64,000 nucleotides of DNA from a virus (lineage: Duplodnaviria; Heunggongvirae; Uroviricota; Caudoviricetes). The translations under genes and the position numbers were made by a program. The stretch lies in IMG/VR virus record IMGVR_UViG_3300021138_000001; one strand, written 5' to 3'. Under the pieces are notes generated by a model. It had not been told where the DNA came from. It saw nothing but the letters and a program-made list of their open reading frames with translations, and searched no databases. Of the stretch, positions 1,774 through 39,433 are shown piece by piece (the stretch's first letter is position 1; each line of letters opens with the position of its first letter).

Positions 1774-2461
1774 TACTGATCTTCAAGAAGTAGAAGACCC
1801 AAAGGCAAAATATTATGAGCCAAAACCAGAAGGCGAAAAGGCTTTCTGGAAGACTCATATTGTAAAGAAGCATCTACACCCTGTAGCTGATGATGCGCAA
1901 TTTAATGGTTCTAATGTAGCCAAAGATAAGACAAGAAAAGCTGATAAGTCTGATCTTCCAGAAGAAAAAATGTCTTCTCCAGAAAAGAAGAAACGCGAAG
2001 AAGTTGTTAAGGCAATGAAGGATAAGACTGCTGAATTCAAAGCCAAGTATGGTGATCGCTGGAAGGACGTTATGTATGCTACAGCAACCAAACAAGCTAT
2101 GGGAGAAGAAGCACTAGATGAAGACTCTCAAGCCGCTTCTTCAGATAGCCCAAGTTCTGGTGGTGGTGGGCCAACAGCAGGTTCGATTGATCCAACATCA
2201 CATATTCAACATGGCCAACCTGTTCCTATGGCTAAAGGCAATTCTATTAAGGAGATGTTAGAGAAGATCGCACTACAAGCTGCAGAACTTCATGATTCTC
2301 TTGGTGAAAATCCAGAATTACAAGATTGGGCTAAGCAAAAGCTTGGCGAAAGCAGAGAATGTCTACAATCTGTTTACAAGCATATTAAGTCTGGCTCAAA
2401 GAACAATGAAGGCCAAAAAGATCCAATGGCCGGTCATCCTGATGCTGGAGGAAAAGTATAA
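1760..2461 (+). CDS. Prohead core/head-associated protein
   Basis: ATG 1760 preceded by GAGGA; charged protein between gp20 and gp21. Confidence 0.6.
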   Translation: MTQNNTDLQEVEDPKAKYYEPKPEGEKAFWKTHIVKKHLHPVADDAQFNGSNVAKDKTRKADKSDLPEEKMSSPEKKKREEVVKAMKDKTAEFKAKYGDRWKDVMYATATKQAMGEEALDEDSQAASSDSPSSGGGGPTAGSIDPTSHIQHGQPVPMAKGNSIKEMLEKIALQAAELHDSLGENPELQDWAKQKLGESRECLQSVYKHIKSGSKNNEGQKDPMAGHPDAGGKV

Positions 2462-2802
2462 TGGCAATTATTCAAAATAGATCATTAGGACATGCAGTAA
2501 CTTTAGATGTAGCCAATAGTACATATAGCTGCAATTCATTTGCCGTTCCAAACAGTTCAGTAGAAACAGTAACTGGACTTGCTGTTACTAAAATTCTTTG
2601 GACTGGTCCTTGGACAATTTCAATTGGTTCAAATCTAATCTTTCAAACTTCAAACAACGAAGGCGTTTGGGATTTAAATTCTATGGGCATTTCTCTTGGT
2701 GGGTATGCTGGCGCAAATCTTAATGTAAATACTACATCTACTACGGCAACATTAATTCTAAATGTTGCTAAGCAATCATCCACTATTGCATCTACTTGGT
2801 AA
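2461..2802 (+). CDS. Conserved head-module hypothetical protein
   Basis: TAATG overlap with upstream gene; beta-rich 113 aa; position in head operon. Confidence 0.6.
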   Translation: MAIIQNRSLGHAVTLDVANSTYSCNSFAVPNSSVETVTGLAVTKILWTGPWTISIGSNLIFQTSNNEGVWDLNSMGISLGGYAGANLNVNTTSTTATLILNVAKQSSTIASTW

Positions 2803-2812
2803 GGATAAAACG

Positions 2813-3472
2813 ATGAAGCTTATTTGCGAAACATTAGAAGACGTTTCAATCATCAAGGAAGCCAGAGAAGACGGCAAGAAGAATTTCTACATTGAGGGAC
2901 CATTCCTAATGGGGGATATTCCAAATAGAAATGGTAGAATTTATGAAAGCCGAATTCTAGCTAAAGAAGTTGCAAGATATACTAAGAATTACATTAAGGA
3001 AAATAGAGCATATGGCGAACTAGGCCATCCTGCTGGTCCAACAATTAATCTTGATCGTGTCTCACACATTATCACAAGCCTTCATCAAGAAGGTTCTAAT
3101 TTCATCGGTAAAGCTAAGATTACAGAAACCCCAATGGGAGACATCGTAAAGGGTCTTCTAGAATCTGGGGGTAAACTTGGCGTTTCTTCTCGTGGTATGG
3201 GTACAGTAACTAGAAGAAAAGATGGTATCATGGAAGTTGGAGAAGACTTCATGTTAGCAACCGCTGCTGATATTGTCGCTGATCCATCAGCACATATTGC
3301 CTATGTTGAATCTGTTGTTGAAGGTCTAGACTGGGTCTATGACGCAGCATCAGGAAACTGGAAAGCAATGAAAGAATTGGAAATTCAAAAAGAACATATC
3401 GCAAAGTCTTCAATGAAGAAAATTAATGAAGAAAAGATAAGACTTTTTGAGCGTTTCCTTCGTACACTATAA
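2813..3472 (+). CDS. gp21: Prohead core scaffold protease
   Basis: Start MKLICE after AAGGA; motifs NRNGRIY, GELGHP, KLGVSSRGMG, DIVADPS. Confidence 0.96.
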   Translation: MKLICETLEDVSIIKEAREDGKKNFYIEGPFLMGDIPNRNGRIYESRILAKEVARYTKNYIKENRAYGELGHPAGPTINLDRVSHIITSLHQEGSNFIGKAKITETPMGDIVKGLLESGGKLGVSSRGMGTVTRRKDGIMEVGEDFMLATAADIVADPSAHIAYVESVVEGLDWVYDAASGNWKAMKELEIQKEHIAKSSMKKINEEKIRLFERFLRTL

Positions 3473-3494
3473 TAAATCTTAAAAAAACAATTTA

Positions 3495-3502
3495 TATAAA
3501 TA
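3495..3502 (+). promoter_or_regulatory. T4-type late promoter TATAAATA
   Basis: Exact motif upstream of gp22. Confidence 0.85.
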
Positions 3503-3533
3503 ATTAATAATCTTTCCAAAAGGAGTAGTTAAA

Positions 3534-4691
3534 ATGGCAGGTAAGAAAAATATTAGTGCGGAAACTCTAGATGAAGTGACTGCATCAGACGGCATCAGCC
3601 ATACTGCTGATCCGTATGCATCTGGGGATTCATCACGTTCTGCTGACAAGAGTGCTGGAGAATCAAGCTATTCTTCTTCAACAAAGTCTGAAGTACTTAG
3701 CGCCATCATGAATCATATTGGTGGTTTAGATAAGGGCGCTCTAGGTAACATTTATAAGGGTCTTCAAGGCGCTTCTGGTTCAGCTACTCGTGCAGCCGAT
3801 AAGTCTGGTGGAGAAGGTTCACAATTGCGCATTTCAGTTTCAGACGCAGACCCAGTAACTGGCGCAAAACTAGCAAACGCTGGTGGTTCTGCTCCAACAA
3901 CACATAATACAACAACCGGTAAGGGTGAAAGGGGGCAAATTCGCCTTTCACCAACTTCAGTAGTTGCTAAGGAAGACGTAGAAGAAATTTTTGGTGGTGA
4001 TGAGCTATCAGAAGAACTAAAGGAAAAGGCAACTGTAGTATTCGAAGCGGCAATTAGTGCTCGCCTAGTTTCAGAAGTTGCTCGTCTAGAAGAAGAATTT
4101 GAAACACGTCTTGAAGAATCAGTAGAATCAATTCGTGGAGAAATTGTTGAAAATGTAGATAAGTATCTCTCTTATGCCGTTGAACAGTGGATTGAAGAGA
4201 ACCAAGTAGCTATTGATACCGGATTAAAGAACGAAATGGCAGAAGAATTTATGTCTGGCCTAAAGAGTCTATTTGAAGCAAATTATATCGACATCCCAGA
4301 AACTAAGGTCGATGTAGTTGCTGAAATGGTAGAAAAGATTGAAGAACTAGAGCTTCGTCTAAATGAAGAAATCGAAAAGAACATTTCTCTACAAGAAGAA
4401 ACAGAAGTTCTTCAAGTAGAAGAAATTTTTTCAACAGCGGTAGAAGGACTAGCAAAGACACAAGCTGAAAAGCTTCGTGATCTAGCAGAAGGTATTTCTT
4501 ACCAAACTGTAGAAGAATTTGAAAAGAAAATCAATATCATTAAAGAAACTTACTTCCCATCATCACAAAAGTCAACTTCAATTACTACACTAACAGAAGA
4601 AGTTGGATATGATGATGAAGAAGTATCAGATTCTGCAACCGGTCCAATGGCTGCTTATATTCAAGCCGTATCTAGACAAGTCAAAAACTAA
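3534..4691 (+). CDS. gp22: Prohead core scaffold protein
   Basis: Acidic coiled coil, VDKYLSYAVEQW and FMSGLKSLFE motifs; between gp21 and gp23. Confidence 0.93.
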   Translation: MAGKKNISAETLDEVTASDGISHTADPYASGDSSRSADKSAGESSYSSSTKSEVLSAIMNHIGGLDKGALGNIYKGLQGASGSATRAADKSGGEGSQLRISVSDADPVTGAKLANAGGSAPTTHNTTTGKGERGQIRLSPTSVVAKEDVEEIFGGDELSEELKEKATVVFEAAISARLVSEVARLEEEFETRLEESVESIRGEIVENVDKYLSYAVEQWIEENQVAIDTGLKNEMAEEFMSGLKSLFEANYIDIPETKVDVVAEMVEKIEELELRLNEEIEKNISLQEETEVLQVEEIFSTAVEGLAKTQAEKLRDLAEGISYQTVEEFEKKINIIKETYFPSSQKSTSITTLTEEVGYDDEEVSDSATGPMAAYIQAVSRQVKN

Positions 4692-4696
4692 ATTTC

Positions 4697-4704
4697 TATA
4701 AATA
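4697..4704 (+). promoter_or_regulatory. T4-type late promoter TATAAATA
   Basis: Exact motif upstream of gp23. Confidence 0.85.
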
Positions 4705-4736
4705 TAATTGACCCAATAAGGAAAAGGGAGAGAAAA

Positions 4737-6086
4737 ATGTATCTAAACGAGGAAATTCAAAAGAAGTGGAAGCCACTAATTGAGCACTCTGAGCTTGCTC
4801 CAATTACTGACTCACACAAGCGTTCTGTAACCGCTCAGCTTCTAGAAAATACAGAAGCTGCTATGGCTCAAGAAGGCGGATCATCTTTCGGTTCACTACT
4901 TGAAACAACTGGTGGTTCTCCAACATCACTAACCGGCGGTTCAGCTAACTACGATCCAGTACTTATCTCACTAGTACGTCGTGCTCTACCAAACCTAATC
5001 GCATATGACATCTGCGGCGTTCAGCCAATGACAGGTCCAACCGGCCTAATCTTTGCTCTACGTCCACAGTATGACTCACAGTCAGGTGCAAACGCATTCT
5101 ACTATGAAGCCAACACTGGACAATCAACATATGGCATGGGCGCTCTTAATGGCTCACAAGCTGTTGGTAACACCGCTGGTAACTGGGGTGGTATCTATGC
5201 TGTTAACACTTCAACTGTTGTTTCAGGCAGCAATACTACATATAACTTCGCTGGTGGTGCTAACACAGCCGTTGCCGAAGCTCTAGGTACTTCTGGTGGT
5301 GCTAACCTTGACTTCAATCAAATGGCCTTCTCAATCGATAAGGTCACTGTTTCTGCCAAGTCACGCGCTCTAAAGGCTGAGTATTCAATCGAACTAGCAC
5401 AAGACCTAAAGGCAATCCATGGTCTAGACGCCGAAACAGAACTTTCAACAATTCTATCTGCTGAAATTCTGTCAGAAATCAACCGCGAAATTGTTCGTAC
5501 AATCAACCTAACAGCTACAGCCGGTGCTGCTGATACTACATCAGCCGGTACTTTCGATCTAGACGTTGACTCAAACGGACGTTGGTCAGTTGAAAAGTTC
5601 AAGGGTCTAATGTTCCAAGTTGAACGCGAAGCTAACCTAATCGCCAAGAATACACGTCGTGGTAAGGGTAATATCCTAATCTGTTCTTCAGATGTGGCTT
5701 CTGCTCTACAAATGGCTGGCGTTCTAGATTACGCTCCTGCTCTAAACTCAAACAACCTACAAGTTGATGACACTGGCAATACCTTCGCCGGTATTCTAAA
5801 CGGACGCATTCGCGTTTATGTTGACCCATATGCTGGTGGTCATTATATGACTGTTGGTTATAAGGGTGCATCAGCATTCGACGCAGGTCTATTCTACTGC
5901 CCATACGTTCCACTACAAATGGTTCGTGCAGTTGGACAAGACTCATTCCAACCAAAGATTGGGTTCAAGACTCGTTACGGAGTTGTTGCTAACCCATTCT
6001 CACGTGGTGCAAACGGTTCAGACGGTACACTAGTACAAAATGTAAACGTTTATTACCGCCGCGTGTTGGTAAATAATATCCTATAA
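4737..6086 (+). CDS. gp23: Major capsid protein
   Basis: LVRRALPNLIAYDICGVQPMTGPTGLIFA, KSRALKAEYSIELAQDLKAIHGLDAE, YCPYVPLQM motifs. Confidence 0.99.
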   Translation: MYLNEEIQKKWKPLIEHSELAPITDSHKRSVTAQLLENTEAAMAQEGGSSFGSLLETTGGSPTSLTGGSANYDPVLISLVRRALPNLIAYDICGVQPMTGPTGLIFALRPQYDSQSGANAFYYEANTGQSTYGMGALNGSQAVGNTAGNWGGIYAVNTSTVVSGSNTTYNFAGGANTAVAEALGTSGGANLDFNQMAFSIDKVTVSAKSRALKAEYSIELAQDLKAIHGLDAETELSTILSAEILSEINREIVRTINLTATAGAADTTSAGTFDLDVDSNGRWSVEKFKGLMFQVEREANLIAKNTRRGKGNILICSSDVASALQMAGVLDYAPALNSNNLQVDDTGNTFAGILNGRIRVYVDPYAGGHYMTVGYKGASAFDAGLFYCPYVPLQMVRAVGQDSFQPKIGFKTRYGVVANPFSRGANGSDGTLVQNVNVYYRRVLVNNIL

Positions 6087-6117
6087 AATATATACTTTTA
6101 TAACTTTTATATAAATA

Positions 6118-6148
6118 GGGGTGGTAGGGAAACTTACCACCCTTTTTT
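6118..6148 (+). terminator. Rho-independent terminator after gp23
   Basis: GGGTGGTA/TACCACCC stem followed by T-run. Confidence 0.8.
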
Positions 6149-6198
6149 ATGGAGAATTATATATCTAAAATTAGAGCAACAAGCTGAATATAATATAG

Positions 6199-7593
6199 CT
6201 ATTCTAACACAAATGTTATTGTACCACAATTCCATATTTTTCCGATATTCAACAATTTTGTTATTTGTTTCTCTGACATATTCTGATCAAAGTCTTTTAG
6301 TTTGGATTTTGTAAATTGTGTTCTAGGTACTCGTTTTGAATAATGGTCAATTACATACCAATATGATGGTGGGTTTTCGTGTGATTTTTTGAACCCATTC
6401 TTTATATAAACATTTCCATCAGAATAGCTTCTATCGGCATATGACACAATGCTTCCTGAAAAGCTTTTTCTAAAATAAGATAAAAGTTTAGAAAAACCTC
6501 CAACGACATTAGTATTTAAAATAGTACAATATCTAACCAATTCCCAATCATATTTTTTGTTGAATCTTGGCTTATTAAATGTCATTACTGCAACCAGAGA
6601 ACCTTGATTATATAAGCCGAGATTAACAGAAGATTTTGAGTAGGACTGAATGTGGTTTTTATTTGCAAAGTCTTTGGCTATATGTGGAATTATCTCTTTA
6701 ATTTCACACTTCCTCGCAAAGATCTTTTCTTTTGTCCCCTGTAGTTTGTTGGAAATCATAGACTTAATTTTATCTTTCTGAAATTTCCAATCATCTTCCC
6801 ACACATGAAGAAGAAAGATACCTCTGTCAGCACACAAGTTAGTCTTATTAAAGTGTAGTAGTTTTTCTTTAAATTCTTCGGTATGATAATATAACCCATT
6901 ATATTCAATTGCAAACTTTAGTTCAGGAATTAATATATCTAATTCTTTACCAATATATCCCACACCATTAGAGACAATATTCAAGTCTGGTCTGATACTT
7001 TTCACATAATCTAATACTTCAAGTTCTCCTATAGAAATTTTCTTATGATTTCGTTCATATGAATTAGGATTTCTTGTTATAATACCATGTTTTTGCATAA
7101 ATTTAGATACAGTAGCCTTTGATGTTCCAAGAAGGTCTGCAATTTCTTGAAGTTTGTTTCCTTTGTCATATATGTCTTGAATATATTCTTTATTTCCTAA
7201 AAGCATCTTGGTAGTGTGTTCAGATTCATTTAACCTGATATGAGGAATATTGTGATACTTTATCCACTTAGTTACGGGCGCTATAGATATCCCAAGACTT
7301 TCTGCAATATTTTCAATTGATTTTCTTTGGATAATTCTTTGATCAAATAACCAATTTTTATCCGACAGTTTCAACAAACTATTTTCAGAAATTCTAGACT
7401 TTGCATTTTTCTTGTTGGCTTGTTGAGAAGCTTCCTTATGGCTCTTTCTTTCAATGCCATAATCAATCAACCATTTTCGCACAGTTGGGTTGGAAGTACA
7501 ATAGATTCTAGCCAATTCGGAAATAGATACCCCAGATTGGTTATATTGTTCTTGCAATTCTTCTTTATTTGGTGTTTCTTTTTTATGGCTCAT
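6199..7593 (-). mobile_element. Putative homing endonuclease (three HTH repeats, DUF559/Hef-like PD-(D/E)xK domain, C-terminal GNAT-like domain)
   Basis: Three repeats of type SISELA..Y..S..TVRKW; ELDILIPELKFAIEYNGLYYH; freestanding, antisense to gp23. Confidence 0.7.
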
Positions 7594-10995: not shown

Positions 10996-11057
10996 ATTAC
11001 ACCTCCTAATACAAAATGTATAGGTACTATATAGTGTTTTTATGAGAAAATCAAGCG

Positions 11058-11459
11058 TTATTTTGATATGGCTTTTAGGTGAACTTCGGTTATCTTACAA
11101 GAAACCCATGAATTATAATAGGTTTCATTTAACAATGCGTCTTCAGCAAAAATAAACTTGGTTTCATAATAGGCACATTCAGATCGGTTTTTACATAACC
11201 TAAGGATTTCTCGATGAAATCCTTCTTTACCATATTTTTGGATATCTGCTAATAAATATTTTGATGATCCAAAATAGGTTTTCCAATCAGACTCTTTTCT
11301 GATTTTTTTCTTTTTACCATTGACTTGTTTTGTTCCGGCCAGGGTAAAGTATTTCCTGCCAATATACTGTTTTCCAGTAGTGGTGTGGGTTATTCTATAA
11401 ACAAAACCGTATGCGCCATTTGGGTCTTCAAATTCAGACCCATTATAAAACCAAGTCAC
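11058..11459 (-). CDS. Stand-alone GIY-YIG (Seg-like) endonuclease
   Basis: GFVYRIT....GKQYIGRK, YFGSS, REIL..C, YYETK..F, YN motifs. Confidence 0.8.
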   Translation of the reverse strand: MTWFYNGSEFEDPNGAYGFVYRITHTTTGKQYIGRKYFTLAGTKQVNGKKKKIRKESDWKTYFGSSKYLLADIQKYGKEGFHREILRLCKNRSECAYYETKFIFAEDALLNETYYNSWVSCKITEVHLKAISK

Positions 11460-11605
11460 TCTTCGTAGTAATACTCGGAATCGGAATCATCTTCATCAAC
11501 GAATTCTATATCTGAACCACAGAATGGACAATAATCCACCGAAGGTCCAGTATCAGAAATGACTCTAAATTCTTCTTCGCAACTGTTACAGGTAATCCAT
11601 TTCAT
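11456..11605 (-). CDS. Small zinc-ribbon protein, 49 aa
   Basis: MKWITCNSCEEEF...CPFCGS; coupled by TAATG and GTGA overlaps. Confidence 0.7.
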   Translation of the reverse strand: MKWITCNSCEEEFRVISDTGPSVDYCPFCGSDIEFVDEDDSDSEYYYEE

Positions 11606-12774
11606 TATAGGCTAAATCCCTTAAATGTAGTTTCGTTCACATCTTTATTTATATCACCAATAATATAAGAAGTAATTTCACCTTCTGTAGCATATCTAAT
11701 TAATAAATCCATATTCTTCCCCCAACGACTTTTAGGCCATCCCAACGATAACTGTTTTTGAAACGTTGCATATGAACGACCATTTTCCATACAATATTTT
11801 TTTAAATCATTGCTATAGATAAATATGTTTAGTCCTTCTATATATAGAAGTTTTACTCCGGGTCTATTATAATGTTTTTTTCCTCTATTTGCTGCACCAA
11901 TTTTATTGGCAGTTTCTGTGCCTTTTACTATTACACCATATCTTGCGTTGTTTTTACCAGAAGAAGCTTCCCTAAGTTTGATCAAACTTATTTCGGAATG
12001 TTTATGCCCTTTAAACCAGCCGCCCGCAGCCGACTGTAATATATTTCGCTTAGTTCTTTGATCTTCCGCCCCACCACCATATATATCTTCATAAGATTTA
12101 CCTTTATGATTGGGCGGTCTATTATCTTCGCATATATTTGTAAGGATGCCCCCAATATCATAATCAATTCTACCATATTTTTTGATAAGAGTTCTTTCGA
12201 TGTCATATGCTAAAGATTCGTCTTCTATATTCTGGGCATAAAACTCAATAACAGGAGAATACCCGAGAGATTTTAATTTTCGTATTTTTGCGCTTTTTCT
12301 ATTATTTCCAGATCGAGATAACACAGATTCGCTGAAATGAGAAAGGGCTCTATCATCCTTACCCTTACCAATATAAAATACCTGATTATTTCTTGGATCA
12401 ATTAGACCGTATACATAGTATAACATTTCAGTCTCCTTTATTCTATTTATAAAGACTGTGTTTGCGGCATATGTAATATGCTCTTCAGTATGGTTTGTAC
12501 CATAACAAAAAATATTATATTTCCTTTGATCTAGGGTTGGAGTAACATCCACCAGTTTATTTCCAATATCAAGTACTGAGTGCTTGAATGCGTGAAGTAT
12601 GTTGTGACTGTCTTTTATAATGTAATAACCTAAAACAGGATTTATCTCACAGTTTTTGTGGCACAAAAAGGGTAGATCGCCTTCTCTAGGAGAAATAACT
12701 ATTTCTCGCAATTTCGTTGCTTTTAATGCTTTAGCGAAAGCAACACACTCTTCAATTTCGGGAATAAAGTACAT
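11605..12774 (-). mobile_element. GIY-YIG (LEM-3-like) homing endonuclease with NUMOD3; internal start at 12426; ends in a copy of the NrdB C-terminus
   Basis: YYVYGLIDPR...FYIGKG; TATAAATA at 12444-12451 and AAGGAG before ATG 12426; ends EITSYIIGDINKDVNETTFKGFSL. Confidence 0.85.
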
Positions 12775-13880
12775 TATAGGCTAAAACTCTTAAAAGTATT
12801 TTCGTCCACATCTTTGTTTATACCACCAATAATATATGAAGTAATTTGTCCTTGTTGTGGTGCGACTTGTACTTCTGCCCCCGATATCCACTTTTGAGTC
12901 CAAGGTAGAGGATTAGACCCCATAGACTTTCCATTAAGCCCAATAGCCCCCATACGCTTATGACCAATCCAATCGACATAATCGCAGAGAAGCTTTTCAT
13001 TAAGACCAATCATAGAGCCATCCTTGAACAAATATTTTGCCCAAGTCTTTTCTTGATCAATAACTGAATCAAAAATATCAACCACTTCATTGTGAGTTTC
13101 TTCCTTGATCTTAGCAAAGTCTGGATCTTCTTGAGGAAGAATCTTTAGAAGTTGTTGAGTAGCTGCAAGGTGGACATTCTCATCACGAGCAATAAGCTTA
13201 ATGATCTTAGCATTACCTTCCATTTTCTTGACTTCAGCAAATGCCCAAGAGCAAGCAAATGATACATAGAAACGAATGCCTTCAAGAGCATTAACTGCGT
13301 TAAGGCAGAGCCATAATGCTTTTTTATGATTAAAAGAACCACCATATTGCATAGCCGCATAATTATATGTTTCAATTACACTAGATATATTATTTTGAGC
13401 AATCAAATCATCGTAATACTTACTAATATCACCAGCACATTCTACAATCTCTGGGATATCAAGCATCTCATCAAACACTACTGATGGATCGGGGTACACG
13501 TTACGAATGATATGAGTATATGAACGAGAGTGAATAGTCTCTGAAAATGACCAAGTCTGAATCCAAGTCTCAAGTTCTGGAATAGAACAAATAGGAAGGA
13601 ATGCTAGAGAGGGCGCTCTACCTTGAACCGAGTCCAAAAGAATCTGCCTCTTTAGATTGGAGGTAAAGATATGCTTCTCATGTGTAGTTAAGCTCTTAAA
13701 ATCCTTACTATCTCGTGATAGTTCAATTTCTTCTGGACGCCAAAAAAATGATAATTGTCTTTCTGTTAGCTTTTCAAATGCTGGATATTTTACTGATTCG
13801 TATCGAGCAATGTTAACTGGCTCTCCGAAGAAAGCCAGTTGCTTAGTATGATCTACTTTATGTATATTAAATACTGACAT
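12774..13880 (-). CDS. nrdB: Ribonucleotide reductase class Ia beta subunit
   Basis: FFWRPEE, DSVQGR, ETIHSRSY, LEGIRFYVSFA, RDENVH motifs. Confidence 0.98.
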   Translation of the reverse strand: MSVFNIHKVDHTKQLAFFGEPVNIARYESVKYPAFEKLTERQLSFFWRPEEIELSRDSKDFKSLTTHEKHIFTSNLKRQILLDSVQGRAPSLAFLPICSIPELETWIQTWSFSETIHSRSYTHIIRNVYPDPSVVFDEMLDIPEIVECAGDISKYYDDLIAQNNISSVIETYNYAAMQYGGSFNHKKALWLCLNAVNALEGIRFYVSFACSWAFAEVKKMEGNAKIIKLIARDENVHLAATQQLLKILPQEDPDFAKIKEETHNEVVDIFDSVIDQEKTWAKYLFKDGSMIGLNEKLLCDYVDWIGHKRMGAIGLNGKSMGSNPLPWTQKWISGAEVQVAPQQGQITSYIIGGINKDVDENTFKSFSL

Positions 13881-14107
13881 TATTCCTCTACTATTCTAAA
13901 TGCTTTTCTAGACACTATTGTATCATAATTACGGCCCTTAAGTCTAATCAAAAGACCATCACCTATACCAGAATATTGATGAGCAGATTCTACTTCCCAT
14001 ACTATACCAATTTCGCTCCACCATTGCGGATCATTAAATGTAATTTTCGTTCCTGGTGTAATTATTAAATCTTGCATATCATATTTTCCATGTTTTAAAT
14101 AGTACAA
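13880..14107 (-). CDS. Hypothetical protein
   Basis: 75-aa ORF coupled between nrdA-c and nrdB. Confidence 0.55.
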   Translation of the reverse strand: MYYLKHGKYDMQDLIITPGTKITFNDPQWWSEIGIVWEVESAHQYSGIGDGLLIRLKGRNYDTIVSRKAFRIVEE

Positions 14108-15099
14108 CTATCACAATTTTCTTCGTCAGTGTCACCTTTCGCCAGTTCTTCTACCCTCATTTCACCAGCACCATCATTCGTATTATTATAATAAAGCGTC
14201 TTAATACCATACTTATATGCCATCAAAATATGCTTTAACATTTCCGATAATGGAATCTTTTCATCAGGATAGAACTTTGGATTATAAGAAGTATTAGTAG
14301 AAATAGATTGGTCAATCCACTTTTGTAATACAGCCATAATCTTTAGATATCCTTCTGGTGAAGATTGGTCCCACAGAAGTTCATACTTATTTTTAAGTTT
14401 GCGCACTTCGGGAACAACTTGCTTTAATACACCTTCACGAGAACTCTTAATCGACACTAAAGCACGCGGAGGTTCAATTCCATTTGTAGAATTAGACACT
14501 TGAGCAGAAGTTTCTGCTGGCATTAGAGCCATTAGAGTAGAGTTACGAATGCCGTATAGATCAGCTTCTTCACGAAGAAGATTCCAGTCCATGGACACAG
14601 GACGCGAAGTTAATTCATCAACCTCCTTCTTATATGTATCTATAGGAAATTGGCCATGCCCATACTTAGTTTCATACCACTTATCACAGGCTCCCTTTTC
14701 TTTGGCTAGATCAATAGAAGCTTTAATTAGATAATAAGACCAAGCTTCTGTATATTGGTCAATTAAATCTAGATTGGGATTAGTATAGGTCATATCGTTC
14801 TTAGCCATCCAATATGCTAGATTGATAATACCAATACCTAAAGGGCGACGATTCATTGTAGAAAGTTGTGCAGCAAGAACAGGGTAACTCTGATAATCAA
14901 GTAGAGCATCAAGAGCGCGTACTGCTAGAGTACAGGGCTTTTCAAAATCAGATGTCTTTTTAATTTTACCCCAATTTATCGCACTCAAAGTGCATAAGCT
15001 AATCTCAGATTTACAATCCGATTCAAATATATCAGTCACATATACATGATCTGAATCATCATGATCAATATTATCAACAATTTCGTATTTAAAATTCAT
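14095..15099 (-). CDS. nrdA: Ribonucleotide reductase alpha subunit, C-terminal fragment (nrdA-c)
   Basis: EISLCTLSAINW (Cys462 equivalent), RRPLGIG, MPAETS, KTLYY, terminal CDSC; own AAGGA RBS. Confidence 0.95.
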   Translation of the reverse strand: MNFKYEIVDNIDHDDSDHVYVTDIFESDCKSEISLCTLSAINWGKIKKTSDFEKPCTLAVRALDALLDYQSYPVLAAQLSTMNRRPLGIGIINLAYWMAKNDMTYTNPNLDLIDQYTEAWSYYLIKASIDLAKEKGACDKWYETKYGHGQFPIDTYKKEVDELTSRPVSMDWNLLREEADLYGIRNSTLMALMPAETSAQVSNSTNGIEPPRALVSIKSSREGVLKQVVPEVRKLKNKYELLWDQSSPEGYLKIMAVLQKWIDQSISTNTSYNPKFYPDEKIPLSEMLKHILMAYKYGIKTLYYNNTNDGAGEMRVEELAKGDTDEENCDSCTI

Positions 15100-15691
15100 T
15101 ATATTTCCTTATATGTTTAGTGAAATTTCCTAAATCCCATTCTTTGTGACAACACACACAACATATTTTTTTACCCTGTAAATGAGATGTTCCATTTGGT
15201 GCTTTTTTGAGATTATATTTGCCTCGTTTTTTATTTAATTTAGATTTTCTCATTTTTTCTTTAGTTTTATCAGAAATGTGAATAACTCCACGCAAACCTT
15301 TATTCCAAGGAGTCTTTCCTTTCTTACTTAATGAAAGTTTTTTTCTATGTTCTATTGTTTGAGGTCTTTTAGGTATACCTTTTTGTGTTTTGCTAATTTT
15401 ATTTTTATGTTCTTCACTTAATCCCATTTTAGATGGGTTGTTTAGTTTCATTCTATTAGATGTATTTAAAGGGTGTTCTTTTGATTGCCAATAATGATCA
15501 TTATGCTCAATTTTATTTTTTTGTGCTTTAGAAAGGGTTTCTCTTACTTCTAACGATCTAATTTTTCCTTTATTGCTTTTAGATATTTTATCTGCGGTGG
15601 AAGAGCCTTTAACAATTCGTCCTAAAGAGGGCGAGATTTTATTTACAACGGCTTTGCTATTATTCCAAACTTCCCAATCATCTTTATACAT
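15089..15691 (-). mobile_element. NUMOD3-repeat protein (homing-endonuclease-like, no recognisable catalytic domain) inserted in nrdA
   Basis: Repeats SEEHKNKISKTQKG, TIEHRKKLSLSKKGKTPWNKG; C-terminal CxxC...GNFTKH. Confidence 0.7.
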
Positions 15692-15707
15692 TAGTTTAGT
15701 ATTAATA

Positions 15708-16703
15708 TCAGATTCGTATTTTTTTGCTTTTAATTGGGGTATTGGGATTTGATTTTTTCCATTCTAAATACTTTTTATATTCTTCTTTAGTCAGTTTCAT
15801 TACTTTAACTATTGGACTACCGTCTTTCAGATCATTTAATGGCTTAGTTGGAAGGGTAATTTCGGCGCAAAGATTTGATTGGCGAATTGGTGCGACTTCA
15901 GATAAAAATGAACCGTGATCATTACAATGATCCACATTCATTAGATATACACGTCCAGTATCCTTCCGTTCTTGAACAAATGATGAGAACATGTCAATTG
16001 CGGGTACTTGCTTTTTTCGCAGCTTTGGGTTGCGTTCTGCGCGCTCATATAATTCTCTAAATTTATTTGAGTCTACAAAGAATGCTTCATAGAGTTCTGG
16101 TACGTCATGGGGACTAAAGAGTGTGATATTTCCACCATTAATAAGTCGCTCATACATCACCTTATTGAATTGTACACCATAATCTAGATGTCGAATCCGG
16201 TTATCTTCAGTACCTTTATTATTTTTTAGGACTAAAAGTTCCTCCGCTTCCAAGTGCCAGATTGGGTAATATAATGTAGCCGCTCCTCCACGGACCCCCC
16301 CTTGAGAATTGTGAGTAAGAACCATTTCTGATTCTGGAGAATTTGCAGCAAAAAAAGTGTGTGTGTCTTCTACAGTAATATCAATATAATTAATTGAAGT
16401 ATTTCCTTTAGATACACTAATAATTTTAGTATGATTATTATCTGTTAAGATTTTATCAGAAAAAAGTAAATTATCTGGCAATACTGTAAATTGCATATTG
16501 TCTTTTTCAATCATTATTGGGTGATTTTTTGAACAATTTAATTCAGTTTTATTGTCAAAAATAAGAGTTCTTTGATCATCTATGCAAACTTCAGTTTCCC
16601 AAATGTCAGTTACAGTTTTAAAAACAACATTTTTGTTGGCATCTAAAGTTTTAATTTTCATACCAACTACCAAATCTTTTAGTTGAATTTTTTTAGTTTT
16701 CAA
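15708..16703 (-). CDS. nrdA: nrdA middle fragment (nrdA-b) preceded by 132-aa intein C-fragment
   Basis: TTG start after AAGGA; CSKNHP (block B), DITVEDTHTFFA (block F), THN|SQGGVRGGAATLYYPIW; QSNLCAEI (Cys439/Glu441 equivalents). Confidence 0.93.
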   Translation of the reverse strand: MKTKKIQLKDLVVGMKIKTLDANKNVVFKTVTDIWETEVCIDDQRTLIFDNKTELNCSKNHPIMIEKDNMQFTVLPDNLLFSDKILTDNNHTKIISVSKGNTSINYIDITVEDTHTFFAANSPESEMVLTHNSQGGVRGGAATLYYPIWHLEAEELLVLKNNKGTEDNRIRHLDYGVQFNKVMYERLINGGNITLFSPHDVPELYEAFFVDSNKFRELYERAERNPKLRKKQVPAIDMFSSFVQERKDTGRVYLMNVDHCNDHGSFLSEVAPIRQSNLCAEITLPTKPLNDLKDGSPIVKVMKLTKEEYKKYLEWKKSNPNTPIKSKKIRI

Positions 16704-17526
16704 TTTTATATTCCTTGATTTGCGGCTTATCCCAATTATGATATTGTATCATATGTTTACTAAAATTACCAAGATTATATTTTTTATTGTTATTACAATC
16801 AAAAGGACAAGCTCTATATTTATTTTTATCATTCATCGCACAATCAACACCATACTTTTCTATGTTTGTTTTTTTGCTTTTAAAATTTCTGTCTGTCCAA
16901 TCTTTTTCTTCCATAACTTTTTTATGTGTTTCTTTTGTTTTTTTATCAAACATCATATTTGTTACCCCATGTTTATCAAACATAACTTCTGATAATTTTT
17001 TTGGGTTTTTAAATGGGTTGTCTGTACCATATATTGTTTCTATAGAATTTTGTCTTGGAGTTTTTACTATATCTAAATCTAATGTATGGTGTTTTCCATA
17101 TTTTTTTATATTTGTTTTATATATTTTATCTTTTATTATTTTTGATCCTGATCCCCTTGAACCATATTTTTCTATTAATTTTGTATTTACTTTTTCTTGC
17201 ACTTTATCAAATTCAAAAGGAAATGGTCCTTCTATATTTAATGGAACCATATTATTATTCCATCTATTTAAATATTTTTTATTGTTTGGTATGTTTAATT
17301 TTTTAAGAACTTTGGTTTCCCATAATAATGCTGAATTCTTATCTTTAAAAACTTTTCTAATTTCTATTAGATTTGGTTCTCCATGTTTTTCAATAAACAA
17401 TTTTACATATTTTGAAGATGACATATAGGTACTGCCAATGTCTTCTAATTTTGCTTTTTTTGAATACCTAACTCCATAATAATATTTGTCTTGTTGTGTC
17501 CATCCTAGTAAATAAGTATAATACAT
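16693..17526 (-). mobile_element. GIY-YIG-variant homing endonuclease inserted inside the nrdA intein
   Basis: YYTYLLGW...YYYGVRY, YMSSS, WETKVL, YLN; TATAAATA at 17545-17552 and AAGGAG RBS. Confidence 0.85.
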
Positions 17527-17575
17527 ATTTTTCTCCTTTATACTTATTTATAGTTTTCTCTAACGCCACCCTGGC

Positions 17576-18481
17576 TTATTCCTCAATAACTTCGACCCAG
17601 GTTTCTGGAGTAAGACAACACGATTTAACAGCACTTTGAAAATGTTTATAAAAAGGTATAACTCCAGTATGACTAGCGTCACCATTACGAATGGGACTGC
17701 CAATAGCCCTAATACGACCAGCACCAATACCAATCCCAGCCTTTTGACTAACATACTTAACGACTGCTGCAGATGTTGCATTGATGGAATCGAGTGAGTC
17801 ATCAGTTTCGATAAGGACACATGAGCTAAACTGCCTTTGAGGCGTGCGAACTCCAGCCATAATAGGAGTAGGAAGGCTAATATCAAAAGTGCTAATGGCA
17901 TCATAAAATTCCTTTACCCATTTAAACCGATCTGTTGTGTATTTTGAAAATAGAGTCATTGCGATAAGAATGAATGACATTTGTGGTGTTTCATAGAACT
18001 TGCCCGTTACGCGGTTCTTAACAAGATACTTACCGCGAAGTTGTTCCATTGCCGCATAAGTCAGCAATTCGTCCCGAGAATGATCAATCAATGTGTCAGC
18101 AAACTTCCATTCGTCTGCAGTATATGCATCGAGTAGCTGACGATCATAATAACCTTCCTTTACTACATGTACGACATGAGTATATAGATTATCAGGAGTA
18201 AACCTACCATAAACTTCCTTACGAAGATTATAATTGATTAGGCGTCCCGCAACATATTGATAGTTTGGATGTTCTTCAGAAATCAATTCGGCAGTAGCCT
18301 TAATTAGAGTTTCTTGAATATCGGTTGACTTAATATTATTATAAAACTGAATCTGTGATTTAATTTCAATTTCAGATACAGATACTCCAGATAGACCTTC
18401 ACATGCTTGTTCAACTACCTTATGGAACTTGTTTAGATTTAACGGTTCTTTTGTTCCGTTGCGCTTAGTTACATTAATCAT
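17576..18481 (-). CDS. nrdA: nrdA N-terminal fragment (nrdA-a, ATP cone) ending in 13-aa intein N-fragment
   Basis: VTKRNG ATP cone, PTPIMAGVRT, SSCVLI, FQSAVKSC|CLTPETWVEVIEE-stop. Confidence 0.95.
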   Translation of the reverse strand: MINVTKRNGTKEPLNLNKFHKVVEQACEGLSGVSVSEIEIKSQIQFYNNIKSTDIQETLIKATAELISEEHPNYQYVAGRLINYNLRKEVYGRFTPDNLYTHVVHVVKEGYYDRQLLDAYTADEWKFADTLIDHSRDELLTYAAMEQLRGKYLVKNRVTGKFYETPQMSFILIAMTLFSKYTTDRFKWVKEFYDAISTFDISLPTPIMAGVRTPQRQFSSCVLIETDDSLDSINATSAAVVKYVSQKAGIGIGAGRIRAIGSPIRNGDASHTGVIPFYKHFQSAVKSCCLTPETWVEVIEE

Positions 18482-19152
18482 ACTTCATCCTTGGTGTTAA
18501 AATAATCTGTTAGTGCTGGGAAACTATTTAGGACTACTTCCTTACACTGTTCTGCAATACTGCGATGTTCTAGCTGAGTAGCCTTATCAGTACGAATTTC
18601 GATATAATGCACCCACGAACGAAGTGTGCCCGCCATATAAAGAGTAGACCCGGTCATGCCCTCTGGTAGAATTGCGCGAGCCTGTTCCTTAGCAATACCC
18701 TTGTTAAGTGCCCACTCATATGTCTCTTGGATTTGTGCAAGTAAACTAGCTTGGCGCATACGAAAATCTTCCGCAAGACGACGAGATTTTTCATCATCAC
18801 CCATAACAATTGAATTTTGACGATTCTTATTATCTTGTGTGCGGGCTTCCCGAAATTCAAAATTATCAGCTACCGCATATCGTTGAGAAAATTCTTGGAA
18901 TGAAAATGACCGGTGACGCAGAATTTGACGAGCAATATCACGAGTAGTTTTAATTTCCATCGTAAGACTTACCATCTCCAATGGTGACCAATGGGCATTG
19001 TTAATAAGATACTTGACTAGCTTAGGGGCAGTTTCTGTATTCATTTGATTAGCCGGATTAGATACTCGGGCAGCATATGCCACTAGATCGTTCGCATCCT
19101 TTACACCTTCAATTGTTGGTTGTGTAATACCAATTAGCTTCACATCAGACAT
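18478..19152 (-). CDS. thyX: FAD-dependent thymidylate synthase
   Basis: HWSPLE, RQILRHRSFSFQEFSQRY, QARAILP; likely start MSDVKL. Confidence 0.97.
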   Translation of the reverse strand: MSDVKLIGITQPTIEGVKDANDLVAYAARVSNPANQMNTETAPKLVKYLINNAHWSPLEMVSLTMEIKTTRDIARQILRHRSFSFQEFSQRYAVADNFEFREARTQDNKNRQNSIVMGDDEKSRRLAEDFRMRQASLLAQIQETYEWALNKGIAKEQARAILPEGMTGSTLYMAGTLRSWVHYIEIRTDKATQLEHRSIAEQCKEVVLNSFPALTDYFNTKDEV

Positions 19153-19169
19153 TTTTACCTCAAACAATA

Positions 19170-20189
19170 TTATTGTGTTTTTTTCCACTCATTAAATTTT
19201 AATGTTGCAGTCATACCAGTATATATATGCGAATCAATAATGTCAACAATTTGTTTCTGAGTCATCCCACCCAAAACCATATCATTAATATCCTTATATT
19301 TCATATCAGAAGGCCAAATACATACTCCATAACCACTATTGATAGCTTGTCGAATACGCTTCACAATATCAACATTTCTAGGCTCATTATCGTATACATA
19401 TACAGCATTTTCGTTCAAAAACTCCTTATTATTCATATCTGCTCCAGCCATAGCAATAGCATTAGGAACAAACATTGAATCGATTGGACCTTCTAGAATA
19501 TAATAACGCCTAGTTTGATCCACAGTATCCAGACCAAAAGTCTTCAAACGATCTTCAAGCATGATGGTGATATACCGAGCTTTATCATTAGGATCAAAAC
19601 TACGACCCTGATAACCAAACATGCGCCCATCCTTATCTAGGAATGGAATGACAAGTCTTGGGGTACCTTTCTCTGGATTAAGCTTATTGGGGATCATCGT
19701 GTTGGTCCACTTAGCATAATTAGAACAATAGAATAGTTTAGAATGATATTCATTAGGAATCATTCTATTCAACACATATTGTTTTGCGGGATGATCCCAC
19801 TCAAGTTGGGAAATCTTCTTAAGTTTAAGAAGGGGTGATCCAACCTTTAGAAATTCTGGGTACTTAAAAACCTTTGGCTTTTCTACTTCAACTTTTTGTT
19901 TTTTATCATTGTCACCATAAGTTTCTAGAACATATTGCTTATAAAGCACAGGATCTAGTTCTCGTAGGAATGAACTAATGTTCCTACTAGCGCCACAATT
20001 AAAGCACTTAAAGATAATTGAATCTTGTTTTTGAAAAAAGTTTCCCCTAGTTTTTGAAGAATCTTTCTTGCTATCTCCGCAAATAGGACATCTAAAATTT
20101 GCTATATAAGGATTATAGGACTTAATCTTAAATCGTTCTAACCTAGTGGAAACCAAATTGGCAAACTTGATATCTACCCAAGAGGACAT
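19170..20189 (-). CDS. gp61: DNA primase
   Basis: Zn finger RCPICGDS...KCFNCG; GYQGRS; LEGPIDSMF; YDNEPRN. Confidence 0.95.
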   Translation of the reverse strand: MSSWVDIKFANLVSTRLERFKIKSYNPYIANFRCPICGDSKKDSSKTRGNFFQKQDSIIFKCFNCGASRNISSFLRELDPVLYKQYVLETYGDNDKKQKVEVEKPKVFKYPEFLKVGSPLLKLKKISQLEWDHPAKQYVLNRMIPNEYHSKLFYCSNYAKWTNTMIPNKLNPEKGTPRLVIPFLDKDGRMFGYQGRSFDPNDKARYITIMLEDRLKTFGLDTVDQTRRYYILEGPIDSMFVPNAIAMAGADMNNKEFLNENAVYVYDNEPRNVDIVKRIRQAINSGYGVCIWPSDMKYKDINDMVLGGMTQKQIVDIIDSHIYTGMTATLKFNEWKKTQ

Positions 20190-37423: not shown

Positions 37424-37811
37424 TTATGCCACCTTGTTCTTGTCTTTTTCTTATAACTGCAAGTTGAGCATCAGATAAAATAGAAATAGCCTGTTTAGCC
37501 TTTTCATTATTATATCCATAATAAGATTTCACCAATTCTAAATCATCTTCTGATACTTTCTTGACCCATTTGGCAAATCGCTTTTTGGGTCTGATAGTAT
37601 TTAGAAGATAATAGAATTGAAGTTTTCCACCCAACGCTGGATACATATTCATATCATTAGCATAAAACAAGGTGTCTGTAAAGTAAGACAATCCTTTATT
37701 TACAATCCACGCATTATATTCCTTTTCTATACGAGATGGATCGTCAGAGTCTCTGATTAAATCCACCTTGGTATTAGAAATCGCATTGACGAAATCAAAC
37801 GGATTTGCCAT
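37416..37811 (-). CDS. gp62: Clamp loader small subunit
   Basis: PFDFVNAI, YNAWIVNKGLSYF.D, IRPKKRF.KW.K. Confidence 0.93.
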   Translation of the reverse strand: MANPFDFVNAISNTKVDLIRDSDDPSRIEKEYNAWIVNKGLSYFTDTLFYANDMNMYPALGGKLQFYYLLNTIRPKKRFAKWVKKVSEDDLELVKSYYGYNNEKAKQAISILSDAQLAVIRKRQEQGGINE

Positions 37812-38542
37812 TACTTAAATTCGCAATCTGCCATAATTTCTGTTAGACATGCCATTAGATTAATTTCTTGGTCCGCAACAAAAGCAGCCTTATATTGATA
37901 CTGCCCAATATAAAGAACTAGTTGTGGAATAGAATCCTTAGCCATAAATTCAGAAGAAGCGTCATATAGCTTTCGGAAAAGTTCTGTAGAATCTTGGTCT
38001 GAGTTTTCAGCAACCCACTTACGAACCATTGGAAAGTTCTTATCTTTTAGAAATACAATAAGAGCCTTAAAGGATTCTTCACCCAAATTAACAAGAATGC
38101 CCGAGTCAATCTTTCCTGTGGCTGAGTAACGTTGAAGTTCATTCAGAACTCTACGCCAATCTGGAAAATACTTCATAATAATTGCCGCAACAGCTTCATT
38201 ATCAAAAGCCACAGTTTCTCGGTTCAGAATTATCTTTGTGCGCTTCATAAACTGAGCGGCAAGTTTTGGCATATCTGACTTTGAAATTTTAAAATTGATT
38301 ACTGAACACCGAGAGTGTAGGGGCTCGATAATACGATTAAAGAAGTTACATGTCAAGATAAATCCGCAATTGATGGAATATTCTTCCATAAAATTACGAA
38401 GTGCTGGCTGAGTTGAGTTGCAGTTATGAACAACTACTCCGGTCCCCGTAATAAAAGTATGATTTTTCTTTACCGTAACATCAACAACATTTCTATAACC
38501 AATCGGTATAATACTTTTCACATTTGAAACATCATAATTCAT
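37811..38542 (-). CDS. gp44: Clamp loader large subunit C-terminal part with 40-aa intein C-fragment
   Basis: VVDVTVKKNHTFITGTGVVVHN|CNSTQPALRNFMEE; FILTCN, PLHSRC, FPDWRRVLNELQRY. Confidence 0.93.
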   Translation of the reverse strand: MNYDVSNVKSIIPIGYRNVVDVTVKKNHTFITGTGVVVHNCNSTQPALRNFMEEYSINCGFILTCNFFNRIIEPLHSRCSVINFKISKSDMPKLAAQFMKRTKIILNRETVAFDNEAVAAIIMKYFPDWRRVLNELQRYSATGKIDSGILVNLGEESFKALIVFLKDKNFPMVRKWVAENSDQDSTELFRKLYDASSEFMAKDSIPQLVLYIGQYQYKAAFVADQEINLMACLTEIMADCEFK

Positions 38543-39386
38543 AATTAATATCGCCGTCCTTTTTTGTGGTAGTTTCACGCCATTTCGATATTCTTTGTTT
38601 CTTTTTTTCTTCAGATTCTTTTAATCTATATAATTTTTGGCTGTCTGATATTTTTTTCTTAACTTCTGGTGTATTAGTATTGGGTGTGTTTTTAACTAAG
38701 CCTTTTAACCAACCATCTGGTATAATGTCATTTGATCCAAACATCTTACCCATTTTAGTTAAAGGATTATGATAACAAACTTTACCCTTTTTACTATCTG
38801 ATATCTTCGTATTAGGTCCTCTTTTTTTTGAAAGTCTATTTTTAGGATATGGTTTAGGAACCCATTGTGAACATAGTTGAATTCTATCATTTAACAACTT
38901 TAAAATTCTTTTATATGATCTATTTCTATTCATTAAAATTTTAATATATTTCTCAAGAATAGGTATTTTAGATGGATGTAGTTTAAAATTTTTATTTCTA
39001 ACGTTTTTAATTAAATTTTGTAAAGTTTTGGTTCTTTTTACTTTTTCACGAATTTTACCTATTTTCATAGGATTTTCATCAAATTTTTTAAAAGCAGGCG
39101 CACAATGTGCATTCAAGAAATGTGGGTTTTTGTGTACTTTTACTTTACTCAAAAACTTATATTCATGTAAAATTGCATCATCTATATTATCAAAAACCCT
39201 ACATATTTTTATTATATCGGGGTTACCATTATTTTTTACAAATTCTTTAACTATAGTAGAAGATGTGAAATATTCAACCCAAATATCACCAACATATGAT
39301 TTTTTAGATATTCTGACACCATAATACCAAATTTTATATTTAGACCAACCTATAGCATAAGTATAAGGTTTATAGATTTTATTCAT
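38532..39386 (-). mobile_element. GIY-YIG-variant homing endonuclease between gp44 split-intein halves
   Basis: PYTYAIGW...WYYGVR, YFTSS, HEYKFL, FLN; late promoter 39409-39416; GGAG RBS before ATG 39386. Confidence 0.85.
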
Positions 39387-39433
39387 GATCGACTCCATAT
39401 TACAAATCTATTTATAAGATGAAGCCGATTATT

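Follow-up and report, generated by a model that had tools for sequence, protein, structure and literature searches.

How can a phage assemble one working enzyme from a gene that is broken in two places? This question is raised by a 64,000-nucleotide (nt) stretch of DNA from a virus of the Caudoviricetes (IMG/VR record IMGVR_UViG_3300021138_000001; hereafter, the window), where the large subunit of ribonucleotide reductase, NrdA, is encoded by three open reading frames (ORFs) separated by two others. All are on the minus strand, in the order thyX, nrdA-a (17576-18481, 301 residues), HEG1 (16693-17526, 277 residues), nrdA-b (15708-16703, 331 residues, TTG start), HEG2 (15089-15691, 200 residues), nrdA-c (14095-15099, 334 residues), a small ORF, and nrdB, which lies downstream of nrdA-c (12774-13880; Pfam Ribonuc_red_sm, 8e-45) and encodes the small-subunit partner. 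The original prediction, made from the sequence without database searches, had placed the three nrdA ORFs at these coordinates and described two more lying between them, and all five are real. It also proposed that trans-splicing joins the product of nrdA-a to that of nrdA-b and that the resulting chain assembles non-covalently with the product of nrdA-c. Comparison with relatives and structural modelling, rather than experiment, support this proposal. We consider it quite probable that a split intein joins pieces a and b and that piece c is added by an assembly like that of Aeromonas phage Aeh1. Splicing, assembly and activity are what we infer; the anatomy of the locus, its homologies, its conservation and the models are what we describe.

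A layout of this kind, coming from a metagenome assembly, could be a chimera or the result of sequencing errors in the contig. However, a metagenome contig of 156,302 bp in ENA (ERZ27271863, k141_174784) matches the window at 99.995% identity, and a 6.7-kb contig from a different, independent run is 100% identical to the window. Contigs from four further freshwater metagenomes (2012 and 2016) span all four gene junctions with zero differences. Since identical contigs from independent runs cross every junction, the layout is not an assembly artefact, and we give a chimera or an error practically no weight. None of the contigs in the four runs skipped an endonuclease gene, although contigs cannot show the absence of such variants. 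The sequencing runs listed for this locus include no RNA run.

Do the three pieces add up to one enzyme? They tile the Pfam families of a large subunit with neither overlaps nor gaps. The ATP-cone, the all-alpha domain (Ribonuc_red_lgN) and the start of the barrel (positions 1-69) come from piece a, barrel positions 69-221 from piece b, and barrel positions 214-522 from piece c. Hence, they correspond to one class Ia large subunit. An intact relative (L012; the L numbers are our designations for the loci compared) matches the three pieces evenly (a 83%, b 80%, c 85%). We numbered the residues by alignment to the solved chains of Escherichia coli NrdA in the PDB, where residues 3-289 of a correspond to E. 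coli 6-293, residues 131-298 of b to 291-458, and residues 28-331 of c to 454-756. The alignment bears out the spread of active-site residues over the three pieces that had been proposed. The equivalent of Cys225 is residue 221 of a, within 'FSSCVLIE'; N437, C439 and E441 are residues 277, 279 and 281 of b; C462 is residue 36 of c, and the tyrosine pair (Y730/Y731) and the C-terminal CxxC are also in this piece. One assignment must be corrected, because the cysteine of 'KSC' (residue 288 of a) had been taken for Cys225 and aligns instead with Cys292. This is the first residue of specificity loop 2, which we take to be residues 292-301 of E. coli NrdA. The Cys225 equivalent is thus in piece a, but the intein is not beside it. 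By this alignment, the first break falls where the allosteric specificity loop begins, rather than beside a catalytic cysteine.

The genes are tightly packed. Only 49 nt separate nrdA-a from HEG1 and 16 nt separate nrdA-b from HEG2, and the last 11 nt of each HEG ORF overlap the start of the following nrdA piece. As originally claimed, nrdA-b and nrdA-c each have an AAGGA ribosome-binding site, found 8 nt upstream of the TTG of nrdA-b and 6 nt upstream of the ATG of nrdA-c. The TTG start and the AAGGA of nrdA-b are kept in two relatives (L105 and L106), and L107, L111 and Acinetobacter phage KARL-1 have ATG at this codon. A terminator scan revealed no terminator-like site on the gene strand between the nrdA genes and nrdB; the scans of the window for σ70-type promoters and for terminators gave results at chance level.

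How is the first break bridged? The last 13 residues of nrdA-a, CLTPETWVEVIEE, which are followed by the stop codon (17576..17617, minus strand), match the first strands of contiguous inteins and form a putative N-terminal intein fragment (IntN). The first 132 residues of nrdA-b (16308..16703, minus strand) form the putative C-terminal fragment (IntC), with block B ('CSKNH'), block F ('DITVEDTHTFF') and block G ('VLTHN'). IntN begins with Cys, and IntC ends with VLTHN and is followed by Ser at position +1. Together, the fragments amount to 145 residues and are colinear, with no segment missing, with contiguous mini-inteins of 144-148 residues (41-50% identity) from two IMG/VR contigs (L004 and L006), Shewanella phage Thanatos-2 and Vibrio phage SUMAE. 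Cys1, the Cys-Ser-x-x-His of block B, the Asp of block F and the terminal Thr-His-Asn are invariant in 37 members of the family, 35 of which are split. The +1 residue is Ser in 48 relatives and Cys in 4. Deleting the intein places KSC directly before SQGG, which corresponds to E. coli residues 290-296 and to the sequence of L012. The exteins that would be joined are residues 1-288 of a (17618..18481, minus strand), which comprise the ATP-cone, the all-alpha domain and the first barrel strands and end at the Cys292 equivalent, and residues 133-295 of b (15819..16307, minus strand), which run from Ser293, the presumed +1 nucleophile, through loop 2 to the N437/C439/E441 strand and end in ...PLNDLKDG.

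The homologues use two intein registers, one codon apart (window 17612-17620; L001, L002, L004). In the register KSC|C...HN|S, with Ser at +1, are the window, SUMAE, L006 and 48 protein clusters; in the register KS|C...HN|C, with Cys at +1, are Thanatos-2, KARL-1, L004 and 4 clusters. The Ser +1 register has an adjacent pair of cysteines at the N-terminal splice junction.

Structural models agree with a split intein. The AlphaFold (AF2) model of the contiguous intein of L004, which is 50% identical to that of the window, has a pLDDT (predicted local distance difference test score) of 95.9. Its best matches in the PDB are all inteins (8ubs, E 9e-8 and template modelling [TM] score 0.75; 2lcj, TM 0.81). 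It has 57 PDB matches at E<=0.001, and the 50 among them that were listed are all Hint-fold proteins, mostly inteins. The model of this relative thus has a Hint (horseshoe) fold. The break falls in the loop between model strands 7-11 and 18-22, i.e., between the second and the third strand, which is the 'S1' position. A complex model of residues 252-301 of a with residues 1-165 of b scored 0.79, against 0.01 for the best control; the mark it passed is reached by 51 of 78 solved complexes and by 2 of 108 mismatched pairs. The runs share at least 61% of their contacts, and the pLDDT of the partner is about 46, which leaves its own fold uncertain. The contacts link residues 286-300 of a with residues 1-9, 15-18, 117-123 and 130-133 of b. 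The 13-residue IntN would therefore lie against these segments of b, so that the two splice junctions meet in the model. Since split-intein complexes are already present in the PDB, this result may reflect likeness to them and is no proof of binding. From the residues and the models together, the first break is most likely a split intein of class 1, with every sequence feature of a working one.

Could the intein halves have lost splicing and act only as docking modules, both breaks being bridged non-covalently in a three-chain enzyme? Such a state would be in line with the second break of some relatives, where the tails weakly match the middle of a splicing domain without its nucleophile (see below). 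Yet in the window Cys1, the block-B His, the block-F Asp, the His-Asn and the Ser+1 are all present, and the invariance of the splicing residues across 37 relatives is hard to explain if selection acted on docking alone. Moreover, if the junction stayed unspliced, specificity loop 2 would have some 145 foreign residues at its base. We think that docking without splicing is improbable.

The arrangement at this break has parallels in several known systems. The 'fractured genes' NrdA-1 to NrdA-7 of ocean metagenomes (Dassa et al. 2009, PMC2677866) have the same order of parts: the N-extein with IntN, a short gap, an endonuclease gene on the same strand, and an overlapping ORF with IntC and the C-extein. 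The 49-nt gap of the window is within their range of 27-51 nt, and the overlap is 11 nt. The inteins of that study are located directly before Cys439 and have the canonical split, with a long IntN and a short IntC, whereas the one in the window is at Cys292|Ser293, is split after the second strand (13/132 residues), and is followed by a second break lacking an intein. A parallel in a cultured phage is the locus of KARL-1 (L002; MH713599, 40953-44672), whose genes KARL1_58-60 are annotated as two reductase coding sequences and a hypothetical protein. KARL-1 has a homologous intein (46% identity) with the same split point (IntN of 12 residues) and a homologous endonuclease gene between the halves. 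Its intein is one residue earlier (Ser291|Cys292, Cys at +1). It differs in having no second break, and has at the b/c loop a contiguous insert of about 55 residues that resembles fused tails. Very short N-fragments are also known from other natural, atypically split inteins: 16 residues in VidaL, 25 in AceL-TerL, 37 in GOS-TerL, and 15 in PolB16 OarG, which has been called record-short (PMC13014065, PMC11766414). These share with the window the S1 split after strand 2, the very short IntN, the near-complete IntC and the origin in phages or metagenomes. They differ from it in host protein and insertion site, and their IntN has 15-37 residues, against 13 in the window.

What is the gene between a and b? 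HEG1 is probably a free-standing homing endonuclease gene, with a predicted SegE-like GIY-YIG N-terminal domain and DNA-binding modules of the DUF7487/NUMOD type. No nuclease family of Pfam matched it; DUF7487 and phrog_3339 ('homing endonuclease') did. Its N-terminal domain matches another ORF of the window (11058-11459; BLASTP E 9e-8) that is itself assigned to PF19835, SegE_GIY-YIG, at 1.6e-35, and the GIY, YIG, Arg, Glu and Asn positions are recognisable by eye. The ORF in the corresponding place of KARL-1, annotated as 'hypothetical protein', shares 34% identity with the full length of HEG1. A pattern scan of viral contigs gave no relatives of HEG1. Of the two endonuclease-like ORFs of the original prediction, only HEG1 has a predicted nuclease domain; HEG2 is truncated and retains DNA-binding modules only. 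The leader of HEG1 (17505..17553, minus strand) contains a 13-bp hairpin with TATAAATA (17545-17552) in the 5' arm and codons 2-6 of HEG1 as the 3' arm; the loop contains the ribosome-binding site AAAGGAG and the ATG, and the fold has -17.4 kcal/mol (z -2.4). The window has 23 copies of the motif TATAAATA, where 11 would be expected. It is also found in a hairpin before the endonuclease gene in Aeh1 mobE and in the GOS fractured genes (PMC2677866).

Three more copies of the HEG1-type N-terminal domain are found in the window (45381-45602, 39111-39365 and 11106-11309; 32-59% identity), and from these matches the genome appears heavily colonised by one family of GIY-YIG endonucleases. The domain also matches the endonuclease between the terminase large-subunit halves 17A and 17B in the Aeromonas phages PX29 (~138189-138419) and AsFcp.

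How is the second break bridged? The extein of piece b ends in ...NLCAEITLPTKPLNDLKDG, after E. coli position ~455, and piece c resumes at ~454-458, between the strands of Cys439 and Cys462. What follows in nrdA-b is a lysine-rich C-terminal tail of 36 residues and the stop codon (15708..15818, minus strand; net charge +8, isoelectric point [pI] 10.1). What precedes EISLC in nrdA-c is an aspartate-rich N-terminal head of 31 residues (15007..15099, minus strand; net charge -7, pI 4.1). The extein of nrdA-c (14095..15006, minus strand) then provides the C462 strand, the remaining barrel, Y730/Y731 and the C-terminal CxxC. No splicing residues or motifs were found in the tails of the window, and Pfam gave no family for them or for several other tail types. 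Tails homologous to that of nrdA-b occur in L007-L011, in L105 and in many protein clusters, and more than 50 acidic heads are homologous to that of nrdA-c, with net charges from -6 to -15. Tail and head types always come in matched pairs (window, L105, L007-L011, L106, L006 and L107). They are absent from the unsplit relatives L012, L014, L017 and L025. L012 has neither intein nor tails and, as the closest intact relative, shows a plain loop at this position; hence, we propose that the tails arrived with the insertion. In the model of L023, a contiguous protein of 805 residues with fused tails (69-row alignment), the insert at 450-515 is below pLDDT 50.

These features recall the nrdA-a/mobE/nrdA-b split of Aeh1 (Crona et al. 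2011, PMC3045599; first reported by Friedrich et al. 2007, as cited there). Both genes are broken in the loop that links the strands of Cys439 and Cys462, without intein or intron, the upstream tail is basic and the downstream head acidic (pI 10.1 and 4.1 in the window, 10.4 and 3.8 in Aeh1), and the endonuclease gene between the pieces overlaps the downstream start. The Aeh1-like split that had been proposed is therefore well matched in position, polarity and lack of an intein or intron. In Aeh1, the tails are essential for activity and for the assembly of the dimer and the holoenzyme (PMC3045599). There are also differences. HEG2 is a truncated member of the GIY-YIG/NUMOD3 family and mobE is an HNH endonuclease gene, so that the two cassettes are different; the upstream partner in the window is itself made from two genes; and the biochemical proof comes from the Aeh1 split. 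A further parallel is the T4 topoisomerase gp39/gp60, split by a MobA element with tail extensions (PMC3045599; bioRxiv 10.1101/2022.08.31.505936). There too, the gene of an enzyme is split by an endonuclease cassette that adds extensions at the C and N termini. In relatives, the endonuclease decayed or was lost while the split and tails were kept, or the pieces were fused again, as in L105, L023 and KARL-1. The enzyme and the endonuclease family are different, and the window lacks the translational bypass. The simplest explanation for the tails fused into a contiguous loop insert in L023 and KARL-1 would be re-fusion after loss of the endonuclease.

In some relatives (L111, 5001-6029, protein P0062; P0064), the b/c tail weakly matches the middle of an intein splicing domain. 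This tail has 48 residues, matches in the block B region (Pfam E 0.005-0.015) and lacks the N-terminal nucleophile. Judging from this match, it may be what is left of a dead intein and may hint at where the tails came from. By a weaker extension of this idea, the charged tails at the second break might be relics of a dead split intein, and both breaks would have an intein origin.

HEG2 (15089..15691, minus strand) appears to be a remnant of a GIY-YIG endonuclease, with only NUMOD3 repeats and a Cys/His C-terminal motif. It corresponds to residues 90-291 of the 291-residue endonuclease at the same position in L011 (67% identity), and the N-terminal 89 residues of the latter, with the GIY/YIG/Arg/Glu part, are missing from it. 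In L007-L010, a C-terminal DNA-binding half like that of HEG2 is joined to a different GIY-YIG domain. HEG2 has no Shine-Dalgarno sequence. A tblastn search of deposited phages with HEG2 gave no match, and a pattern scan of viral contigs gave short NUMOD3-type matches only. The endonuclease is truncated and probably dead.

Could the pieces instead be joined as RNA, with the intervening ORFs lying within self-splicing group I introns? Group I introns with endonuclease ORFs are common in the nrd genes of T4-like phages (PMC3653736), which makes this worth weighing. We searched positions 11000-20000 with Rfam on both strands, at E<=1, and found no family. The non-coding space amounts to 49 and 16 nt only, and the downstream pieces overlap the ends of the endonuclease ORFs. 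The extra residues at the ends of the pieces (the intein halves and the tails) are not needed by an intron model. In L105 the inserts are nearly gone, and still the three ORFs keep their own stops and starts. At the second break in particular, the lack of an Rfam match, the 16-nt spacer and the overlap of nrdA-c with the upstream ORF speak against an intron. Joining at the RNA level is thus very improbable.

How common is such a layout? A megablast search of the locus against 50,697 deposited phage records gave no match. Among deposited phage genomes, 8 records only match most of piece b, and none of those inspected has both breaks. Metagenomic data are different: the original prediction had suggested looking for the layout in related phages, and three-piece loci are indeed found in metagenomic contigs. 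We counted states among metagenomic protein clusters, taking the best 120 b-sized and the best 120 a-like clusters. Of the b-sized clusters, 33 start with IntC and end in a tail and so represent this middle piece; in more than 15, the IntC at the start is combined with an IntN at the end that belongs to a second split intein, at Cys439; and 47 are intein-free a+b chains that end in a tail, the two-piece, Aeh1-like state. Of the a-like clusters, 33 have at their end an IntN of 13-27 residues, which has exactly 13 in seven of them. The endonuclease content varies between loci. L111 has two endonucleases; L107 and L108 have one only in the intein, together with an Aeh1-like tail; and in L105 the three ORFs are intact, while only stubs are left of both endonuclease genes. 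Some loci go further, with a four-piece nrdA (L106, L005/L006) that combines tails with an intein in cis or S1-split form, a split intein at Cys439 and another split one before TSAQ. We lean towards the view that multi-piece class Ia reductases using trans-splicing and tail assembly are common and stable in uncultured T4-like phages and persist after the loss of both endonuclease genes. They would rest on an undescribed family of S1-split inteins at Cys292/Ser293, whose IntN, with 13 residues (KARL-1: 12), would be the shortest among the natural ones characterised so far.

Two of these loci deserve a description of their own. In L105, the closest of the three-piece relatives, deletion has left the last codons of both endonuclease genes. 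These stubs (4859-5000 and 5949-6065) consist of '...GYKIEN' before the TTG of the b piece and of a Cys/His stub of about 35 codons before the c piece; they are exactly the parts that hold the downstream ribosome-binding sites. L006 (IMGVR_UViG_3300028413_000003, 251 kb) has its four-ORF nrdA at 2162-6314, and L005 is organised likewise. The first ORF is the N-terminal part with a contiguous intein at Cys292|Ser293 and ends in the IntN of the Cys439 split intein. The second, of 99 residues, has only 17 from the reductase, between IntC and a basic tail. The third has an acidic head and the middle part, with an IntN before TSAQ, and the fourth has the IntC and the C terminus.

The spread of the three-piece state also bears on whether nrdA is simply decaying in this phage, its pieces inert and the phage making use of another copy or of the reductase of its host. 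The original prediction called the enzyme essential; mutants of T4 in nrd grow, however, and the loss of nrdA would be tolerable. Of the two endonuclease genes that were inserted, one is truncated, and our search was limited to 64 kb of a 156-kb genome; within the 64-kb window, there is no second nrdA-like sequence. Against decay, the three ORFs are open, keep all catalytic residues and have a ribosome-binding site each, and nrdB is intact. The three-piece state occurs in many divergent lineages, even after loss of the endonucleases, with 61-85% protein identity and no frame damage, and the sequence is unchanged in samples taken years apart. Decay seems to us quite improbable.

An active enzyme restored by trans-splicing and non-covalent assembly is the reading that we prefer, and several points weigh against it. 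It is based on comparison and models. The matches of the intein to the Hint clan of Pfam are weak (E 0.0007-0.002) and under the curated cut-offs. The start codon of nrdA-b is TTG. An intact nrdA could be elsewhere, as the search covered 64 kb of the 156-kb contig. The tails of the window resemble those of Aeh1 at the level of their pattern only. Furthermore, it may oversimplify matters to say that b and c are held together by the tails, because those of Aeh1 serve the dimer and the holoenzyme and not the pairing of its two pieces (PMC3045599).

With these points in mind, the history and the working of the locus could be as follows. The ancestral nrdA of a freshwater T4-like phage would have been invaded twice by homing-endonuclease cassettes. 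The first would have brought a mini-intein between Cys292 and Ser293, with a free-standing GIY-YIG gene inside the first hairpin loop of the intein. This placement of the endonuclease gene would have split the intein at S1, leaving an IntN of 13 residues and an IntC of 132. The second, composed of a GIY-YIG gene, a basic tail and an acidic head, would have entered the hairpin loop that links the strands of Cys439 and Cys462. The operon would be transcribed as a single message and the three pieces translated separately. IntN would complete the fold of IntC, and trans-splicing through Cys1 and Ser+1 would ligate a to b, yielding an a-b chain of 487 residues and recreating KSC-SQGG and loop 2. 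This chain and piece c would then form the barrel non-covalently, with no covalent joining at the second break; the tails would help to build the active dimer and the holoenzyme; and NrdB would bind the assembled a-b/c.

Other parts of the window have also been fractured or invaded. The clamp-loader gene gp44 (37811-40066) is interrupted: an N-extein ending in ...LDEADYLN with an IntN of about 100 residues (39434-40066) is followed by a paralogue of HEG1 of 288 residues (38532-39398) and then by an IntC ending in ...VVVHN, with Cys and the C-extein (37811-38578). By these motifs, the phage has two predicted split inteins with different split positions, S1 in nrdA and canonical in gp44. T4 needs its clamp loader for replication. 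If the canonically split intein of gp44 works as predicted, this phage would therefore already depend on trans-splicing. After nrdB, an ORF of 389 residues (11605-12854) has a GIY-YIG/LEM-3-like domain and NUMOD3. At its end, the final 26 codons of nrdB are found once more (identity of 72 of 87 nt, and of 77% for the protein), and its start overlaps the nrdB stop (TAATG). In sequence terms, it looks like an endonuclease cassette near the 3' end of nrdB that brought or duplicated a replacement C terminus. A copy of TATAAATA (12444-12451) precedes an internal Met before its GIY-YIG domain, where the real endonuclease may start.

Each of the two mechanisms is known singly, from the fractured genes of 2009, the Aeh1 split of 2007 and 2011, and the S1-split inteins VidaL and PolB16. 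In the open-access literature, we found no paper on an enzyme rebuilt from three genes by both mechanisms, and none on the nrdA locus of KARL-1 or on an intein at Cys292/Ser293; a paper on intein insertion sites gives none in reductases. The original prediction knew of no described three-part case; this agrees with the open-access literature, while the layout itself is frequent in metagenomic data.

If the enzyme works as we propose, it would have absorbed two successive invasions by selfish elements and neutralised them differently, one covalently through a split intein and the other non-covalently through tails that came with the cassette. The three-chain design would then become fixed, and one relative (L105) keeps it after both endonuclease genes decayed. 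Since the intein is at the base of the specificity loop, the reductase would be neither specific nor active before splicing. The 'tails' solution, studied in Aeh1 only, would become that of a large and modular family with different types of endonucleases. If active, the family with the 13-residue IntN would extend the natural range of such fragments (15-37 residues; record 15, PMC13014065). There would be dozens of natural split inteins with N-fragments of 13-18 residues, a size that is sought for the semisynthetic labelling of proteins (PMC13014065).

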